IMG/VR virus record: IMGVR_UViG_3300034053_000055 | Location: 1-36,016 of that record | Origin: a virus | Taxonomy: Duplodnaviria; Caudoviricetes | Reading direction: 5' to 3' (one strand) | DNA length: 36,016 nt | Part shown: piece by piece, positions 2,026-29,607 of the stretch | Layout: the number at the start of each line of letters is the position of its first letter | How positions within the stretch are numbered: position 1 is the first letter of the stretch | Position numbers and translations under genes: made by a program | Notes under the pieces: generated by a model | The model's input: only the letters and a program-made list of their open reading frames with translations | Database searches by the model: none | What the model was told of the DNA's origin: nothing

Positions 2026-2337
2026 ATGTTCAAGATCGACCCGAATCCGACCTTCGAGGTGCGCGTCGCCGGCTTCGTGCCGGGCCGCCCCACCGATGGC
2101 CTGACCGTCAAGTACCGCTACCAGAACGGCGAGCAGTTCCAGGCCTGGCTGCAGTCCTTCGCCGACAAGACCGTCGAGGACCTGCTGCTCGACATCATCG
2201 ACGGCTGGCGCGACGCCCCGCGCGAATTCAGCCGCGAGGCCCTGCAGGATGTCTGCAAGGCCTACCCGGCCTTCGCCACCGCCCTGATCGACGCCTACCG
2301 CGGCGAGCTGTTCGAGGCCAAGCGAAAAAACTCCTAG
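2026..2337 (+). CDS. tail assembly chaperone (gpG-like)
   Basis: MFKIDPNPTF...EAKRKNS, between tail tube and tape measure, ending in a slippery site. Confidence 0.8.
   Translation: MFKIDPNPTFEVRVAGFVPGRPTDGLTVKYRYQNGEQFQAWLQSFADKTVEDLLLDIIDGWRDAPREFSREALQDVCKAYPAFATALIDAYRGELFEAKRKNS
2325..2331 (+). other. programmed -1 frameshift site A_AAA_AAC
   Basis: X_XXY_YYZ heptamer just before the gpG stop. The -1 frame stays open to 2660. Confidence 0.8.
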
Positions 2338-2660
2338 AGGCCGCGCGATGCCTGTACACGCCCAGCAACGCGCAGCAGACGGCCTCGGAACTCCTGGGCC
2401 TGCCGGTGGAACGCGCCGCCGGCTTTGCCGCCGCGCCGCTGGGCATCTGGCCGGGCAACTGGAAAACCGTCCTGCTCTTCGCGGCCCTGGGCACGCAGTG
2501 GCGGGCCGGCATGGCCGGCCCGGTGGGGCTGGACTACGCCGTGCTGCCCATGGTGGCGCGGCAGCTGCGCATCCGCCTGAAGCGCAGCCGTTTCGCCGCC
2601 CTGCAGGCCATGGAGGCGGAAGTGCTGCGGATCTTCAAGGAGCGGCGTAGCGATGGCTGA
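2331..2660 (+). CDS. tail assembly chaperone gpT-like portion (DUF1799-like), made as a G-T frameshift fusion
   Basis: IWPGNWKTVLLFAALGTQWR..GPVGLDYAVL motif in the -1 frame after the slippery site. Confidence 0.75.
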   Translation, partial: LLEAARCLYTPSNAQQTASELLGLPVERAAGFAAAPLGIWPGNWKTVLLFAALGTQWRAGMAGPVGLDYAVLPMVARQLRIRLKRSRFAALQAMEAEVLRIFKERRSDG

Positions 2661-5600
2661 GAACAGCACCAAGATCGTCATCAGCGCGGAAGACCGCGCC
2701 AGCGGCACGCTGAAGGGCATCGGCGCGCACATGGGCGGCCTGAGCGGCGCCGCCGCCGCCGCCAACGCCGCCCTGGCCTCCCTCTCCGCCGGCGCCGCCC
2801 TGGCCGGCCTCGCCGCCACCGCCAAGGCCGCCATCGACGCCGCCGACAACCTCAACGACCTGAGCCAGAAGACCGGTATCGCCATCAAGGACCTCGTCGC
2901 CTACAAGCTGGCGGCCGAGCAGTCGGGGACCTCGCTGGATGTCGTCGCCAAGGGCATGAAGGCGCTGGCGGTCGGCATGATTGAGAACAAGGACGCGCTG
3001 ACCGCTGCCGGAATCACCGCCAAGGACACCAGTGGCGCCATGCGCCAGCTCGCCGAGCTGTTCAGCCAGATGCCGGACGGCGCGGAGAAAGCGGCCATCG
3101 CCACCAAACTGCTCGGCAAGGCCGGCACGGACCTGATCCCGCTGCTAAATCTGGGCACGAAGGGGCTCAATGACTCTGCCGAAGCCTCGGCGCGCTACGG
3201 TGCCGCCATGGCCGCCCTGGCGCCGCGGGCAGATAAGTTCAACGACGACATGAGCGCCCTATCGCTCAATATGCAGGCGATCGGCGCGGAGTTGGCGCAG
3301 GCGGTCGCGCCAGCGTTGAATGTGCTTGCCGAGGAAATGCTGGCGGCCAGCAAGGAAACGACCGGGTTGTCGACCCAAGCCAGCGTCCTGAAAACCGTTT
3401 TCGAGACAGTGGTGGTCCTCGGTGCCAATGTTGCCTACGTTCTAACGGGCATCGGGAAAGAGATTGGTGGCGTGGCCGCGCAGATGGCGGCCCTGGCGCG
3501 ATTCGACTTTAAGGGCTTTGTCGACATTCATCGGTGGATGGAAGAGGACGCCGCGCGCGCGCGGAAGGAAATCGACGCCCTGAGCGAGCGGCTGCTCAAT
3601 CCGCCGGCGATGAAGTCGGAGCAGAAAAGCGCCCCCTCCGACGACCTGCTGCGCCGCTTGGAGGAACTGAAAAAACGCCTGGCCGGCGCCGGAACTGCCA
3701 GCAAAACCGCCCGCGATGCCTACGAGGAACTGCTGACGCGCCTCAACGCCAAGGACGCTGGAATCGACGCGGGGTTCTTCAAGGACCTGCAGACCTTGCA
3801 GGCCGGCTTCGCCAAGCATGGCGACCTGGCCCGGCATCAGGCCGAGGTGCAGAAACTGGTCGAGACGCAGGGCTACTACAAGGACGCGCTGAAGGCGACC
3901 GCCAAGGCCGAGGAGGACTGGCAGAAGAGCGTCGAGAAGGCCCGCCAGGCCGTCGATGACGAGATCCGCAAGCTGGAGGAGCGCGCCAGCGCCGCCGAAG
4001 GGGAACTGGAGACCTACGGCAAGACCAAGAGCGAGATCGAGGCGCTGATCATCGCCCGGCTGGAAGAGCAGAAGGCCATGACCATGGGCCTCGATTCGCA
4101 GGAGGAACTGGTCGCCAATCTCGAAAAGGAGATCGCCGCCCGCAAGCGCGCCCGCGCCGCCTTCGCCGGCGTCGAGGCCAAGGACGCCGCCAAGAAGGCG
4201 GCCGAGGATGCCGCCCGCGCCTGGGAGGACTTCGCCCGCGACATCGAGCAGTCGCTGACGGACGCCCTCATGCGCAGCTTCGAGGCCGGTGACGACTTCG
4301 GCCGCGCCTTCGCCAAGAACCTGGAAAACATCTTCAAGACCATGATCCTCAAGTTCGCCATCCAGGCCACCATTGGTGGCGCCGGGCAGCTGCTCGGCAT
4401 CCAGACCTCGGCCGGCGCGACGAATGCCTTCAGCACGGCCGCCAACCTGTGGTCCACCGGCAGCGGCCTCTACCAGGGCTGGACCGGCCTGACGACCGGC
4501 GGCGGCCAGGGCGCCTGGGGGCAGGCCGGCAACTGGCTGGGCAACCAACTCGGCACCTACCCGACGGCCGGCGGCTCGCTCAATGCGTCGGCGGTCAACT
4601 ATACGAACAGCATGGACCTCGCCAGCGACGGCGCCGGCAGCATGTCCGGCTCGATGGCCGGGCTTGGCTACATGGCCGCCTTCATGGCCGTCGGCATCGC
4701 GCTCGGTGAGTGGTTGGACTCCAAGGCTGGCGGCGTCAAAACAGAGGGCGACGCTTTTATGACTGTTGGTGACGACGGCCCAACCTTTGCCGACCGCTTC
4801 GTCACCGGCTCTGACATGTTTTCCGGCAATACCGGCGTCGCGTTCGTGGATGTCAACGGCAACCCGGCCGGCGAGACGACGAGCTTCTACAGCGAGGCCA
4901 ACGGCTTCACCGACTACCTCTACAACACCGTCACCCGCCGGGTGTCGGATCAACTCACCGACCTGCTGACGCCGTTCAGCGGCGCGGTGCGCGACTTCAT
5001 CGGCGAGCTCGGCGGCGATGCCTCCGGCCTGGCCTTCGCGCTGGGTTATTCGGCCGATGCGCAGGGCAAGGCGGGCGTGACGCTGGGCTCCGGCGTGGCC
5101 GGCGCCGATGGTGTGCAAATCTACGGAGGAAACAAGAGCGTCAGCGGTGACCTTGGCGCCGAACTGAACCTCGAACTGCAGCGCATGCTCCTCGCCTCGA
5201 TCAAGGCGGCCGACGTGTCGAGCCTGTTCAAGGACGCCCTTGCCGGCGTGGACATTGCCGCGCTCGACGGCGAGGGTATCGCCAAGATGTTCAGCAACAT
5301 CGGCCTGCTCAAGCAGGCCTTCGACCAGTTCGAGGACCTGTTCCCGGACCAGGGCGGCCTGACCAGTGGCCTGCTGAAGGCCATGGGCGGCATGGAGGCC
5401 ATGCAGGCATCGCTCGCCACCTACTACGACGTGGCCTACAGCGCCGAGGAAAAGCAGGCGATGCTGCGCCGCGACCTGGAGGACCAGTTCGCCGCGCTCA
5501 ACGTCGCCATGCCAGATTCCGTCGCCAGCCTGCGCGCCCTGGTGGAAGCGCAGGACCTCTCGACCGAATCCGGCCGCGCCCTGTTCGCCGCCCTCATCAA

Positions 5601-9958: not shown

Positions 9959-10033
9959 TGGTGGGCGATGCTGGTGTCGAACCAGCGACCTTCCGCGTGT
10001 GAGGCGGACGCTCTACCGCTGAGCTAATCGCCC
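9959..10033 (-). tRNA. tRNA-Val (anticodon CAC), full length with CCA
   Basis: Minus strand GGGCGATTAGCTCAGCGGTAGAGCGTCCGCCTCACACGCGGAAGGTCGCTGGTTCGACACCAGCATCGCCCACCA forms a complete cloverleaf. Confidence 0.93.
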
Positions 10034-10217: not shown

Positions 10218-10670
10218 ATGCACGAACAGCACGGCCTCACGAAAACGCCACTCTATATGCATTGGAGAGCAATGCGAAATAGATGTTTGGGGACGGATAA
10301 GAATAAGATCAGGCACTACCAGTCAAAGGGCATAAGAATCTGTAAGGAGTGGGATTCTTTCCCGGTATTCATGGCGTGGGCTATAGAACACGGATGGGAA
10401 AAGGGGTTGACTCTCGACAGAATCGATCCCCGTGGAAATTATGAGCCTGCGAATTGCAGATGGGCGACCCCATTGCAGCAAGGGGAGACAAAATCAAATA
10501 AGGCCGTCGTTACTGTCGGAGATGAAACGCTCACGGTAAGCCAGTGGTCGCGCCGCATTGGCATAGGTCTATCGACCCTCTTCCGGCGCTACTACAAAGG
10601 CATAAGAGGTGCGGCCTTTGTCGCTCCTATAGACGCTAAAAAATCAAGGCGCATCACGGCATCAATGTGA
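10218..10670 (+). CDS. HNH-type endonuclease
   Basis: HGLTKTPLY..WRAMRNRC...LTLDRIDPRGNYEPANCRWAT. Lower GC than the backbone. Confidence 0.75.
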   Translation: MHEQHGLTKTPLYMHWRAMRNRCLGTDKNKIRHYQSKGIRICKEWDSFPVFMAWAIEHGWEKGLTLDRIDPRGNYEPANCRWATPLQQGETKSNKAVVTVGDETLTVSQWSRRIGIGLSTLFRRYYKGIRGAAFVAPIDAKKSRRITASM

Positions 10671-11613
10671 TCGCCCGCGAAAGCCCGTCCAGCGCCTCGC
10701 GCTGGCGGTCGATCAGCAGGTGGGCGTAGCGCTCGGTCGTGCGGACGGACGTGTGGCCGAGGATGTCCCGGATGACCTCCAGCGGAGTGCCCATGTTGAT
10801 GAGCAGCGAGGCGCAGGAGTGGCGCAGATCGTGAAAGCGGATCTGCGGCATGCCGGCGGCCTCACGGGCGCGGCGGAAGCCAGTTTTTAGACCCTCGAAG
10901 TTGATCTGCAGCGGAATAAACTTCAGCCACGGCCGCAGCGCCGGGACGATGGGCACGGTACGGTGCCGCAGGGTTTTGGTGTTGCCGGCGAGAATGCGCA
11001 GCGTGTCGCGGCCGATGTCCAAGGCGGTGAGTTTGAGGATTTCGCCGCGCCGGCAGCCGGTGAGCAGGGCGATCCAGATCGCGGCGCGCACCTGCTCGCT
11101 GGCGGCATCAGTGAGCCGGCGCACTTCGGCCAGTCTTAGGTATTCGTGCCGGGCGTTGTTTTCGGCCAGGCGGCGGATCTTGCCGCCGTAGTCGCTGGGC
11201 GTCAAACCGCGCAGGTAGGCAATGGTCAGCGCCTTCTTGACGGTGCCGATGGTCCGGTTGATCGTGGCCGGCGCGTAGTGGCCGCGCATGTCGTCGATCA
11301 TGCGCTGGATGGCGACCGGCGCGTCGCTGGCCCGGCGGCCCATCAGCCAGGGCCCGGCGCGGACGGCATGATGGCGCGCGGTTTCCGGGCTGCGCAGGTG
11401 GTCGGCGTGGGCGAGGTAGAGTTCCATCACCGCCGGCAGCATGGGGTCGCCCGGGATGTGGACGTCGCGCCGGCCGGCGGCGCGGCGCAGTTCGGCCTCT
11501 AGCTGCTTGGCATCACCCGCAGATGTGCCCGGCGGCATGCGTCGGTGTAGGCGGCGCCCGCCGACCATGACCGCGACGTGGCGGCGTCCGTCCTTGTCGA
11601 TCCAGATTGACAC
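10654..11613 (-). CDS. int: tyrosine recombinase (phage integrase)
   Basis: GTG start with GGAG RBS. Catalytic residues: R (TGCRRGE), K (NTKT), HDLRH, LGH, Y (TERYAH). Confidence 0.92.
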   Translation of the reverse strand: MSIWIDKDGRRHVAVMVGGRRLHRRMPPGTSAGDAKQLEAELRRAAGRRDVHIPGDPMLPAVMELYLAHADHLRSPETARHHAVRAGPWLMGRRASDAPVAIQRMIDDMRGHYAPATINRTIGTVKKALTIAYLRGLTPSDYGGKIRRLAENNARHEYLRLAEVRRLTDAASEQVRAAIWIALLTGCRRGEILKLTALDIGRDTLRILAGNTKTLRHRTVPIVPALRPWLKFIPLQINFEGLKTGFRRAREAAGMPQIRFHDLRHSCASLLINMGTPLEVIRDILGHTSVRTTERYAHLLIDRQREALDGLSRAITLMP

Positions 11614-11777
11614 TGGTGCTCCCGTAGCCAGCGCTTGACCTCGTCGAGATTGTAGCGCTTGCCGCGCCGGCCGATCGGTGTGTAGGGCAGTCCGTCCAGT
11701 TCCAGGCGCCGGACGGTGCTTTCGCTGATGGCCAGGGCGGCGCAGAGCTGCTGCCGGCTGAGGTCTGCGGTCAGCAT
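11499..11777 (-). CDS. xis: excisionase-like HTH protein
   Basis: LSRQQLCAALAISESTVRRL...RYNLDEVKRWL, overlapping the int start. Confidence 0.75.
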   Translation of the reverse strand: MLTADLSRQQLCAALAISESTVRRLELDGLPYTPIGRRGKRYNLDEVKRWLREHQCQSGSTRTDAATSRSWSAGAAYTDACRRAHLRVMPSS

Positions 11778-12379
11778 GTGATGATCCGATCCAGCGGGCT
11801 CTGTACGCCGCGCCCGCCGCGGTTGAGGACGTGGGTGTCTCTCGATATGGCGGCCGAGAAAGCCCCGTGCAAGACAACGGAAGCGCCAATAAACGCGGCG
11901 GCGGCCTCGGCGGGGGTTGAAAACCGGCCAAGGTAGAGTCGCTTTTTTGTGATGGGCAGTGTAATGCGTGCGGCAAATTTCCCATCTGGGGCGGCGTCGA
12001 CGCCAGTTCCGTGCTTGGATGCTCTAACTCGGTTGGCGATGTTTTGCGCCGGGGTGGCAAGGCGCAGATTTTCTATCCTGTTGTCTGCTGTGTTGCCATT
12101 GATGTGGTCAATATCGCCAACTGGGTACGATTCGTGATGCCAAAGCCAAATGAGGCGGTGAACCTTGAATCGATGCCCCAACAGATATACGCCGGAATAT
12201 CTCTGTGACTTCTGTCCGCCAACAGCATCCCCTGGCTTCTTTGTGATGTTTCGCAGTGGAGCTTTCCACACAAAACAGCCGGCAACCGCGTTGTATGAAA
12301 ATCTCCGCCGCATTTCTGCGAGCAGCACATCGTCTGTTGGCCTCGATCTGGTCCGACGCGCGGTTTCTTGATCAGCCAT
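11771..12379 (-). CDS. HNH endonuclease with AP2 domain
   Basis: HRLIW..IDHINGNTADNRIENLR followed by GV...FAARI..LYLGRFSTPAEAAAA. Confidence 0.85.
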   Translation of the reverse strand: MADQETARRTRSRPTDDVLLAEMRRRFSYNAVAGCFVWKAPLRNITKKPGDAVGGQKSQRYSGVYLLGHRFKVHRLIWLWHHESYPVGDIDHINGNTADNRIENLRLATPAQNIANRVRASKHGTGVDAAPDGKFAARITLPITKKRLYLGRFSTPAEAAAAFIGASVVLHGAFSAAISRDTHVLNRGGRGVQSPLDRIITC

Positions 12380-12665
12380 GATTGGCCTCCTTCGGATTAG
12401 GTAAACCAAGCACTTCGCGCAGATCGTCAATCAGCTTGACGAGCGTTTCGCTCTGGCCGTCGCAGGTATTGCTCCAGTCCGAGGCGAGGTAGCTGCCCAC
12501 GCTGGCGAGTTTGGAAGTCAGGGAGTATTCGTTGCCGTCGAGCTTCCGGATGGCGTCGAACATTGATTGCAGGTCGCTGAAACACGACTGCATCAGGTGG
12601 GTGGTGTTGTGGGCTTCGGTGACGGCCTGACGGGCGGCGTCAACCAGTACGGCGTGTGGGCGCAT
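12372..12665 (-). CDS. hypothetical protein downstream of the C4/ash leader
   Basis: AGAGGA RBS before ATG 12665. 97 aa, helical, overlapping the HNH start. Confidence 0.55.
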   Translation of the reverse strand: MRPHAVLVDAARQAVTEAHNTTHLMQSCFSDLQSMFDAIRKLDGNEYSLTSKLASVGSYLASDWSNTCDGQSETLVKLIDDLREVLGLPNPKEANHG

Positions 12666-12714: not shown

Positions 12715-12796
12715 ATCGGGTGGGCGGAACCGTGCAGGTTGGCGTACCGGTCAGAGGGCCGGCGCGGGTTTCCCCGCCCCACACGGCCCGCCCATA
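12715..12796 (-). promoter_or_regulatory. C4 antisense target region (c4-a1b1/ash-like leader)
   Basis: GGGCGGGCCGTGTGGG...GGTACGCCAACCTGCACGGTTCCGCCC hairpin. Its ACGCCAA is complementary to the C4 loop TTGGCGT. Confidence 0.65.
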
Positions 12797-12801
12797 GGAC
12801 T

Positions 12802-12953: not shown

Positions 12954-13044
12954 GCCTAACTCGTCGATGGAAAGCACGCCGCGCGGTAATGTGGTGGTGA
13001 GTGAAAGACATCATGGCGCGGCGGCTTTCATCTCTGCGTTCGGC
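12954..13044 (+). mobile_element. integron attC site A
   Basis: R'' GCCTAAC, 5 bp spacer, L'' GATGGAAA vs L' TTTCATC (one extra base), extrahelical A in GCACGCC, R' GTTCGGC. Confidence 0.8.
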
Positions 13045-13628
13045 GTCTCAAGAACGCCCGTCACTTCGTTGCCCATCGCTGTCCATCCTTCGCGGACTCG
13101 GCGCGCAAACATTTCGTGGTAATCGCCGGGGCTCACGCGCTCCACCATCTCGTAGAACTCTTCCGGCTTTTCGCTGTGCCGGCCGCGGGGCCACTGAAAC
13201 CACGTCCCGCGCGTCTTGCCGAACGCATTGCCGGCCGGGCCACCCTTCCGGCACAGCAGAACTTGCTCGGAGTTGCATTGAAACTGCCCGGTCCCATAGC
13301 CAGGCTTGCACCACGTCAGCGTCTGCTGCGGCTCAAAGCCCCACGCCCGCGCAACGCGCACGGCCCAATCCAAATGCTGGTTCAGCGCCCACAGGTACAG
13401 GTGCGCTTTCGGCTCTGTCTCGGGCCGCATGGCCTCTATCGCATCAACCGTCAGCAGCGGGTAATACCGCTGCGGCCCTGCGCGGTACGGACCTTCGCGC
13501 CGGCCTACGGTGTTTCGGTGCAGGCTCGGCCACCAGGGCGGGTCGGCCACCACTGTTCGCGGGAGCCGCCGAACCCGTTGGTCAACCGGACCTGCCGCAA
13601 TCGGAGTTTTCACAAGTTCAGTCTCCAT
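13011..13628 (-). CDS. MT-A70 family N6-adenine methyltransferase
   Basis: VVADPPW catalytic motif, HLYLW, HSEKPEEFY, EMFARR. A GTG at 13613 with GGAG RBS is an alternative start. Confidence 0.88.
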   Translation of the reverse strand: METELVKTPIAAGPVDQRVRRLPRTVVADPPWWPSLHRNTVGRREGPYRAGPQRYYPLLTVDAIEAMRPETEPKAHLYLWALNQHLDWAVRVARAWGFEPQQTLTWCKPGYGTGQFQCNSEQVLLCRKGGPAGNAFGKTRGTWFQWPRGRHSEKPEEFYEMVERVSPGDYHEMFARRVREGWTAMGNEVTGVLETPNAEMKAAAP

Positions 13629-13663
13629 CTGGTGCGGCAGGCCGGTTACCGCCAGCGTTAGGG
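13568..13663 (+). mobile_element. integron attC site B
   Basis: R'' GCCGAAC, L'' GGTCAACC vs L' GGTTACC (extra C), GGACCTGCCGCA/TGCGGCAGGCC stem with extra A, R' GTTAGGG. Confidence 0.88.
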
Positions 13664-13667
13664 GCCT

Positions 13668-13910
13668 TCATTGCGTAGCCACCGCCGGCAGCAAATCGCC
13701 GTTGTCCTCGAAGTCATCGCGCAGGATTTCCAGCGAGTGGTCAGCGGCGACCTCGATCACTTCGCGAAACGACTTGAACCGCTCGCCAGTCGCCGGATTG
13801 ATCTCGGGGGCGCCCATCGCGTGTTTCGTGGCCGCCTTCGCCCAGCCTGGCAGCATCTCGAAAGAGCGGTCCAGTTGGTCAATCAGTGCTGCGCGTTCTT
13901 GTGCTTCCAT
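13668..13910 (-). CDS. hypothetical protein (cassette cargo)
   Basis: 80 aa, AAGGA RBS, stop just before R' of attC B. Confidence 0.7.
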   Translation of the reverse strand: MEAQERAALIDQLDRSFEMLPGWAKAATKHAMGAPEINPATGERFKSFREVIEVAADHSLEILRDDFEDNGDLLPAVATQ

Positions 13911-13911
13911 G

Positions 13912-14241
13912 TCAGTCCTTTCCGGGGCGCTCGGCCCCTAACACGTCATTCGAGAGGGACGCTTCGCCATGAAGCCGGCTCGCGCCCCTCAATTCGGCGT
14001 TGTGCCCCTCGGGTGCCGTCCTGCCAGCGTCGACTTTTGTCGGGGCAATGTGAAAATCGCAATCTCCAGCATTCGGGCAGTCGTCTGGTTCGCACGGGCC
14101 AAGGTATCCGGGCGCGCAGGCCGGGGATGGTTCGCCGCATGGCATCAAGTCGTCCGTCTTGCATGCGCAGCCCCAGTCCGAATAAAGGCCGTCGAAACCT
14201 TCCGCCGTAAGTGCTTTTACTGTTATGTCTCGCAGGTTCAT
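13912..14241 (-). CDS. Cys-rich hypothetical phage protein (cassette cargo)
   Basis: GGAG RBS. GFDGLY..GCACKTDDLMPCGEP..C.PGY. The C-terminus is translated attC C. Confidence 0.7.
   Translation of the reverse strand: MNLRDITVKALTAEGFDGLYSDWGCACKTDDLMPCGEPSPACAPGYLGPCEPDDCPNAGDCDFHIAPTKVDAGRTAPEGHNAELRGASRLHGEASLSNDVLGAERPGKD
13936..14005 (+). mobile_element. integron attC site C
   Basis: R'' CCCTAAC, ACGTC spacer, ATTCGAGAGGGACGC...GCGCCCCTCAAT, R' GTTGTGC. Confidence 0.85.
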
Positions 14242-14266
14242 TTCTGTCTCCGTTGTCAGCGCCGGG

Positions 14267-14337
14267 GCACAACCCGTCACTCGTGTGGGACCTGCCGCGA
14301 TAAAGCCGCGTCAGGTCCCACAGTTCTAGCGTTGTGC
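14267..14337 (+). mobile_element. integron attC site D
   Basis: R'' GCACAAC, CCGTC spacer, ACTCGTGTGGGACCTG...CAGGTCCCACAGT, R' GTTGTGC. Confidence 0.85.
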
Positions 14338-14609
14338 CCCAAAGCCTTCGCAACCGCCGCCTCAGCCATCGCCACTGCTTTTTCGGTGTGCGCAAAGAGC
14401 AGCTCTTGGAGCGCGGCCAGAAGGTCAGGCGCTGCGGCCATCAAATGTGCGTCGACGGCGGCACATTCATCGTGGTGGCCTAGACTCACAATACGGACGC
14501 GATCGGTTTCCACTGCGTAGCCTCGGGAGTCGAGCGCCACAAACCAGGTTCCTAGCGTTCGCTTGACTTCCAAATCATGCGGCGCTCTTGCGGTTCTGTT
14601 GGGTTCCAT
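14277..14609 (-). CDS. hypothetical phage early protein
   Basis: DAHLMAAAPDLLAALQEL...AEAAVAKALG motif common in phage early genes. The C-terminus reads through attC D. Confidence 0.7.
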   Translation of the reverse strand: MEPNRTARAPHDLEVKRTLGTWFVALDSRGYAVETDRVRIVSLGHHDECAAVDAHLMAAAPDLLAALQELLFAHTEKAVAMAEAAVAKALGHNARTVGPDAALSRQVPHE

Positions 14610-16785: not shown

Positions 16786-16826
16786 AGCCTAGCGGAACGC
16801 TAGAAGCCTGTCAAGCAGGGCGCTAG
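16786..16826 (-). promoter_or_regulatory. PL promoter with operators OL1 and OL2
   Basis: TTGACA-17-TAGGCT. Operator palindromes CTAGCGgaaCGCTAG (16789-16803) and CAAGCAgggCGCTAG (16812-16826). Confidence 0.8.
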
Positions 16827-29008: not shown

Positions 29009-29607
29009 TGCGCGCCACGCTCGCCGCCTTCGCCGCCGGCCTGCTGCTCGCCCTGGCCATCTGGGCCCTGTGGCCGGCCCCGGCGCCGATCGTCGAAACG
29101 GCCGCCCCGGAAGTGCGGCAGGACGACGGCTCGGTCATCCTCGAACGCCAGCCGACCACCCCGGACGCCACGCCCGCGCAGGCGGTGCCCAAGGGCGCCA
29201 AGGTCGAGCGCGTCGTGCAGGTCAAGGTCCAGCCCCACCGCCCGGCGCCGCTGCCGGCCGGCGACGGCCTCAAGCCCGCCGGGCCGCTCATTGACATTCC
29301 GCCCTGCCCGCCGGTCACGGTGGATATGACCCTGCTGCGCGAGCCTGACGGCAGCCGCCGCGTCGTCGCCAGCAGCCCGGACGGCCGGATCGTCGGCGGC
29401 GTCGACATTCCCGTCGAGACCCCGCCGCCGCCCGCCGCGCGTCGCTGGGCCGCCGGCCTCAGTCTCGACCCGATCCACCAGACCCCCGGTGTCTGGCTGG
29501 AGCGCGACCTGATGCGCCTCCGGGTCGGCGTCGAGATCAACCAGATCGCCACGCGCAATGCCGGCCGCGAAGGCGAGATCCGGCTGCGCGTCGGCATCGT
29601 GTTCTAG
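29008..29607 (+). CDS. membrane-anchored lysis-module protein (possible spanin)
   Basis: N-terminal TM segment, Pro-rich middle, C-terminal amphipathic beta strands ending in Phe. Follows the endolysin. Confidence 0.5.
   Translation: MRATLAAFAAGLLLALAIWALWPAPAPIVETAAPEVRQDDGSVILERQPTTPDATPAQAVPKGAKVERVVQVKVQPHRPAPLPAGDGLKPAGPLIDIPPCPPVTVDMTLLREPDGSRRVVASSPDGRIVGGVDIPVETPPPPAARRWAAGLSLDPIHQTPGVWLERDLMRLRVGVEINQIATRNAGREGEIRLRVGIVF

Follow-up and report, generated by a model that had tools for sequence, protein, structure and literature searches.

Integrons are viewed as bacterial devices, and in their arrays the pairing of the R' of one attC site with the R'' of the next is the established trace left by circular cassettes that were cut open at G|TT. 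In the accessible portions of Cury et al. 2016 (PMC4889954), cassettes are described as mostly transcribed away from the integrase gene, intI, and the mechanism of cassette creation as unknown. More recently, two preprints (bioRxiv 2024.07.02.601686 and 2024.07.02.601719), as far as accessible, describe integrons as reservoirs of genes that act against phages. The premise of the initial annotation of the DNA studied here, that integrons are rare or absent in phages, is in part outdated: the accessible text of Qi et al. 2023 (PMC9892861) reports 17 CALINs and three complete integrons among 10,705 phage genomes, and an assay of phage attC sites against attI1 in which five of six sites recombined. 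In our scan, the TJE1 array from that study was canonical, and another published phage CALIN (L250, MW202573, positions 2069-3738) had four attC sites opposite to the strand of its genes. A literature search, with most subscription papers beyond its reach, returned no paper on an inverted phage integron.

The DNA analyzed here, referred to as the window, is an entire virus record of 36,016 bases whose gene content (terminase, portal, capsid, tail, cro-like, primase-helicase, integrase and tRNA-Val) is that of a temperate, lambda-like phage. An attC array lies in its leftward early region, flanked by a Lar-like gene and an excisionase/integrase (xis/int) pair (Table 1). The four attC sites that the initial annotation had placed on the plus strand, with G|TT crossovers, were confirmed at the same coordinates by a covariance model and by inspection of the sequence. 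The four plus-strand hits that it expected from an attC covariance model were obtained with a substitute model, trained on 51 attC sites that our own scanner had picked from integron loci of bacterial chromosomes; all four sites were matched at full length with 33.9-48.6 bits (E 3e-8 to 3e-5, rough values). Three bacterial loci (L104, L119 and L131) had been excluded from the training set because of inverted calls there. At E<=1, the model gave five matches in the 36 kb, namely the four sites and one partial match with an E-value of 0.52.

Each site is a palindrome of the form R''-spacer-L''...L'-spacer-R' with AAC/GTT ends and extrahelical bases, as originally described, with two amendments to the claimed anatomy: the L'-R' spacer measures 6 nt, not 5, in sites 2 and 4, and sites 3 and 4 show, by eye, three bulged bases instead of a single extra base in L''/L' plus an extrahelical A. 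The bulged bases place the attC top strand on the plus strand. Folding of the bottom-strand DNA gave z-scores of -4.4, -3.6, -1.0 and -8.0 for sites 1-4, so that site 3 is a weak hairpin. A strict attC grammar recovered two of the four sites (0.1 hits per shuffled window), and a looser one recovered three at scores of at least 11.5 (one hit in ten Markov controls), with site 3 scoring 9.6. A further stretch, 29535-29607 (-), reached a borderline grammar score of 11.4 and had no covariance-model support. Judged by its sequence, the set of four attC sites is confirmed as real. With four sites and no more of an integron integrase nearby than a 64-nt intI remnant, the array is a CALIN in the usual sense (at least two attC sites and no integron integrase in the vicinity).

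Table 1. Coordinates of the array and of its surroundings in the window.
Feature	Position	Strand	Remarks
tRNA-Val(cac)	9959..10033	-	same tRNA downstream of int in intI-bearing L028 and L218
Phage integrase (int)	10654..11637	-	PF00589; start codon tentative
Excisionase-like HTH gene (xis)	11499..11777	-	phrog_66; 73% identical to L028 gene
HNH endonuclease gene	11771..12379	-	PF13392, phrog_99; occupies intI position of relatives
3' intI remnant	11775..11838	-	THVLNRGG...SPLDRI; now in-frame tail of HNH ORF
Small ORF downstream of C4 RNA	12372..12665	-	phrog_27414
C4 antisense RNA	12716..12799	-	RF01695, 58.5 bits
attC site 1	12954..13044	+	crossover 13038|13039; loop holds MT-A70 gene stop codon
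Cassette 1	13039..13657	+	inverted MT-A70-family methyltransferase gene; PF05063, phrog_359
attC site 2	13568..13663	+	crossover 13657|13658; loop: GGAG and start codons on - strand
Cassette 2	13658..13999	+	inverted 80-aa gene, 13668-13910 (-), widespread unnamed family
attC site 3	13936..14005	+	crossover 13999|14000; cassette 3 ORF reads through whole site
Cassette 3	14000..14331	+	inverted Cys-rich phage gene, ATG 14241, stop 13912-13914
attC site 4	14267..14337	+	crossover 14331|14332; early gene 14277-14609 (-) stops inside
Candidate leftward early promoter	16786..16814	-	TTGACA-17-TAGGCT plus CTAG-N7-CTAG operator-like motif; by eye

The claim that each R' pairs with the R'' of the next site also held. 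Over the seven bases beyond GTT/AAC, 6/7, 7/7 and 7/7 bases pair with the next site, compared with five, four and three with the own R'' of sites 1-3; site 4, which is self-complementary (7/7 with itself), is the exception to better next-site than own-site pairing. The three cassettes are delimited by the crossovers as initially proposed, a proposal that left unstated that the genes lie on the minus strand and overlap the sites. The window contains gene cassettes in the sense of G|TT-bounded mobile units with an R'' complementary to the preceding R', the evidence for mobility concerning the whole unit for cassette 2 and the sharing of ends for cassette 3 (see below). When four perfectly paired nucleotides were demanded, next-site pairing was found in 79 of 107 viral cassettes and own-site pairing in eight (shuffles: mean 8.4, maximum 17); in bacterial arrays, 53 of 70 cassettes showed next-site pairing. 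The initial reading of the array as IntI-type cassettes in a phage early operon is supported.

The main oddity of the array, absent from the initial annotation, is that its genes are inverted. All three cassette genes are on the minus strand, backwards with respect to attC and in line with the early-left operon of the phage. In a canonical cassette the ORF occupies the attC top strand and precedes its attC; here all three are bottom-strand ORFs. The methyltransferase gene of cassette 1 (13011-13628 (-), or from a GTG at 13610) begins within the site 2 loop and terminates inside site 1. For cassette 2, comparing the longest ORFs on the two strands by a symmetric rule gave a tie (237 vs 240 nt), and the strand call rests on the protein homologues, of which the 80-aa protein has 191; its Atlas matches, all under 0.9, serve as a lead only. 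Transcription of the cassette genes likely starts at an early-left promoter of the phage itself, for which a candidate lies upstream (Table 1). The operator-like motif of this candidate occurs in the window only at 16789, 17903 and 17938, and is shared by the cI/cro promoter region. The promoter at 16814-16786 was read by eye and is absent from the output of a consensus promoter scan, and we therefore only infer expression from it.

Inversion is not confined to the window. According to an RBS-based rule, whose start windows are unequal on the two strands, 81 of 107 distinct viral cassettes were inverted, none was canonical, four had both arrangements and 22 were uncalled, as compared with four inverted, 21 canonical, none with both and 45 uncalled among 70 bacterial cassettes. 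The symmetric longest-ORF rule yielded 50 inverted, nine canonical and 48 tied viral cassettes (n = 107), and one inverted, 57 canonical and 12 tied bacterial cassettes (n = 70). Under both rules the counts are non-independent, since related phages contribute cassettes. Among the 81 inverted ORFs, 44 stop beyond the crossover and 13 start inside their own attC. Of these ORFs, 79 entered a PHROG scan, two near-duplicates having been dropped, and 33 of the 79 proteins found a match; the labels include eight DNA methyltransferases, three Lar-like and three PAPS-reductase-like proteins. Such small early-gene cargo, in particular the methyltransferases and Lar-like proteins, suggests a role in tuning counter-defence. 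Comparison of the 107 viral with the 70 bacterial cassettes gave a single weak body match of 25 aa. The three bacterial integron loci excluded above (L104, L119 and L131) contain a few inverted, phage-like cassettes, and on visual comparison a protein of L104 is similar to the one encoded in the first cassette of phage loci L196 and L199.

The search with the 80-aa gene led to a 100%-complete phage (G001) that has terminase, portal, capsid, tail and replication genes as well as the cassette 2 gene in common with the window. Its IntI scored 453 bits against TIGR02249 (cut-off 265) and is encoded downstream of at least nine attC sites in the same inverted layout; G001 carries a complete integron, with an intact intI, an attI and an attC array pointing away from intI. 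Using the G001 IntI as a query, IntI relatives were found at 50 viral loci. In 30 aligned viral loci, an attI-like motif lies just upstream of intI, with similarity stopping right after G|TT, and a pattern search returned 68 viral stretches, some of them on the same contigs. Related IMG/VR phages carry intI, attI and inverted cassettes upstream of xis/int. Wherever a listed array includes an IntI, its gene and the attC top strand are on opposite strands, so that these are not inverted-integrase integrons. A strict LexA-like box was present in one of 35 viral and four of 62 bacterial intI regions, a count that is uninformative as to LexA control.

In a tree built by a quick method from 114 IntIs (40 viral, collected with a viral query, and 74 bacterial, from a scan of 4 of 64 parts), 33 of the 40 viral proteins formed a virus-only branch (SH-aLRT 99), which nests among proteobacterial IntIs; from its neighbors in the tree, a betaproteobacterial host may be guessed. 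The IntI of one inverted array (L060:6137-10026) does not belong to the main viral branch, and the attI region of this array differs as well. The array may be of independent origin, a hint that phage integrons arose more than once. Three inverted arrays (L019, L227 and L237) show no IntI. That of L019 (3011-8149; a 51%-complete record) comprises ten attC sites, all inverted relative to the genes, and in many of these sites the loop harbors the RBS and the ATG start of the following gene. In L004, L008 and at a loose end of sequencing run X12 (at 13654), cassette 2 homologues follow a different type of site (…CTATTTAG.G|TT), possibly another attI family; no intI was found in the L004 record, which is 38% complete. 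A phage DGR RNA (L227:6477-6612) and a reverse transcriptase (L045:17979-18974) occur in cassette-bearing phages, and two diversification systems may therefore coexist. The window terminase found no match in G006-G010, and the terminase of G008 is of another type. Among GenBank phages, nine records had IntI-like matches, all under 60% identity; one of the phages considered, Rctr41k, has an IntI-like gene with one attC downstream, a different arrangement, and was rejected as an instance of the same layout.

The array had been described as a cassette system without its own IntI. This description is not supported, as the last ~21 codons of intI sit at the position where relatives have an intact intI. 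The remnant is 81% identical to the G001 intI over 64 nt (E 2e-10), and the window is colinear at 70% with an intI-bearing relative (L028) over 10694-11838; the shared gene order extends from the end of intI through xis and int to the same tRNA-Val, which is likely the attP region. The location of this intI 3' end points to a decayed phage integron in the window. The ATG of xis overlaps the end of the remnant, as xis overlaps intI in L028, and the last codons of intI probably survive because of this overlap. The integrase of the window was itself rejected as an IntI (45.8 bits against the TIGR02249 cut-off of 265) and is an ordinary phage integrase.

In the segment 11771-12934, the C4 RNA, the small ORF and the HNH gene stand in place of attI and most of intI; a promoter-like TTGACA-17-TACCGT, read by eye, lies near the C4 RNA at 12934-12906. 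No attI-like motif was found in the window, which lacks the intact intI and attI of a complete integron. Left of site 1 there is no GTT matching the R'' of that site (the nearest sequence, TTAGG at 12397, misses the G), and the C4 module is therefore not established as a cassette. The small ORF ends in ...LPNP..., which brings to mind cassette genes ending across the crossover, but the invariant G is absent at 12396. Loss of intI is recurrent: in L196 and L199, attI persists together with 36 codons of intI, and no IntI match was obtained for L159 and L197, each of which has attI and an array. In L068 and L069, an intI match spans residues 3-342 within about 500 bases, probably owing to an internal deletion. 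L070, with an intI 3' fragment and a C4 RNA, was dismissed as a parallel case, having no attC and its C4 RNA on the other strand.

In related phages, gene content does change at G|TT, where the compared genomes differ by whole cassettes, as the initial annotation had anticipated. In two of them (L043 and L044), identity is 99.9% as far as the attI crossover, beyond which whole-cassette indels occur whose 3' block ends lie at +2, +2, +6 and +19 of G|TT. Another, L041, equals L040 plus one cassette at attI. The cassette of L040 matches one of the distal G001 cassettes at 99.3% identity, although the head genes of this phage (G008/L040) differ from those of G001. Homology to cassette 2 starts at the G|TT crossover in G001, L004, L008 and L009. 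In addition, public sequencing runs (X1, X3, X4/X7, X5, X12 and X20; the identical records X4 and X7 are counted once) contain pieces with 0-3 differences over most or all of cassette 2. The X4/X7 piece corresponds to 13650-14002 with unlike sequence on both sides, on a short contig, and the left neighbors of cassette 2 differ among X4, X12 and X20, likewise on short contigs. By these sequence comparisons, cassette 2 is mobile as a unit. The phage itself was in none of the public runs (best share 0.09), in which no joint skipping exactly one cassette was detected either (at this best share of the phage); cassette 2 had no match in plasmids, and the array gave short methylase matches only against GenBank phages. 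Homologues of cassette genes 2 and 3 occur without attC in other phage-like loci (L005, L251). Moreover, the first ~40 bases and the RBS/attC end of cassette 3 are common to cassettes with another gene, so that some exchange takes place inside cassette ends.

We suggest, with a probability of roughly 0.85, that the array is that of a phage-borne integron which has lost its integrase and carries cassettes with backward genes; IntI likely inserted these cassettes, and the early-left promoter likely transcribes their genes. In intact relatives, the order along the predicted early transcript is promoter, early genes, cassettes, attI, intI, xis and int. As intI, attI and attC keep normal integron geometry with the ORFs flipped, IntI would insert new cassettes at attI as usual, consistent with the L040/L041 and L043/L044 comparisons. 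A repressor-controlled early promoter, not Pc, would express the cassettes together with intI upon induction or infection. The window array would no longer be able to capture cassettes at attI on its own; excision and insertion between attC sites might proceed with the IntI of the host or of a co-infecting phage acting in trans.

A more far-reaching proposal, which we advance tentatively and consider less probable than its negation, is that temperate phages own an integron lineage whose mirror-image cassettes were made by swapping ordinary phage early genes into pre-existing attC frames, some of them leaking to hosts. Gene swapping is proposed because of the end-sharing of cassette 3 and the attC-free homologues of genes 2 and 3, and leakage into host chromosomal integrons because of the inverted, phage-like cassettes in L104, L119 and L131. 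If cassettes are built in this way, phages may be a place where integron cassettes are made.

Among the competing explanations, the one that fares best, although improbable, invokes a host IntI that inserted cassettes in trans at secondary, attG-like sites of an integron-free phage, with selection for promoter-facing genes. Indeed, the window lacks an intact intI and attI, L019, L227 and L237 have inverted arrays in which no IntI is seen, and, in the accessible part of Loot et al. (10.1101/2022.09.11.507474), IntI is reported to insert cassettes outside att sites and most CALINs to lie away from intI pseudogenes. However, the window retains the intI 3' end at the spot of the relatives' intact gene, colinear with L028 through xis, int and tRNA, and ordinary bacterial cassettes would not yield genes that start and stop inside attC. 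We therefore prefer a resident phage integron that decayed, on which in-trans action may still account for later changes.

It is very unlikely that a prophage captured a piece of a host chromosomal integron as passive cargo, as in Vibrio and Shewanella phages. Such captures are described in the accessible text of Qi et al. 2023 (PMC9892861), a model trained on bacterial sites matches the attC sites of the window, and the phage IntIs branch within the proteobacterial ones. Yet bacterial cassettes are mostly canonical and those of the window inverted, the cargo consists of phage early-gene material that has phage homologues lacking attC, the viral and bacterial cassette sets share one weak 25-aa match, and arrays change on a 99.9%-identical phage backbone, by which this explanation is already largely refuted. 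Least probable of all, the sites could be attC-derived linkers for homologous or illegitimate gene swapping, or RNA elements, with IntI no longer active, as the frequent loss of intI (in the window, and in L196/L199 with attI and 36 codons) and the recurrence of cassette 3 ends around other genes might be taken to indicate; but the breakpoints are located at G|TT in sites that resemble one another little, pairing between successive sites reaches the strength found in bacterial integrons, and an intact IntI together with attI is frequently encountered.

The phage-borne integron that we favor points to phages running a gene-cassette system of their own: they appear to use the integron recombination machinery with genes turned to feed the early operon. 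Part of the mosaicism of phages would thereby have a defined, site-specific mechanism, and the inverted cassettes would form a compact collection of candidate counter-defence genes. Homologues found both inside and outside cassettes, and ends shared around different genes, offer material on cassette creation. The contribution of the window itself is the decay step from phage integron to CALIN.

Compared with canonical integrons, the relatives of the window share an IntI of the TIGR02249 family, an attI at the start of intI, attC anatomy, G|TT crossovers and insertion at the first position. Unlike in canonical integrons, the phage cassette genes point towards intI and not away from it. They often overlap attC, and their expression likely depends on a phage promoter at the opposite end of the array instead of Pc. 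In the inverted-integrase integrons of the Treponema group (Cury et al. 2016, PMC4889954, accessible part), the direction of intI is likewise that of the cassette genes; there, however, it is intI that is flipped relative to attC, whereas in the phage type intI and attC are in normal arrangement and the ORFs are flipped. With the SALIN/attG insertions of Loot et al. (10.1101/2022.09.11.507474; available part), the window shares cassettes outside an intact integron, but its intI remnant and its intact relatives suggest that an integron already resident there has decayed. The phage CALINs of Qi et al. 2023 (PMC9892861), as far as the accessible text goes, have attC clusters in phages and DNA methyltransferase cargo in common with the window; that text describes no inverted ORFs or phage-adapted integron, does not remark on the inverted layout of MW202573, and suggests capture or illegitimate recombination. 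Phage CALINs are thus already published, and the window, a CALIN by definition, is on our reading of its sequence a decayed member of a phage type with backward cassettes.
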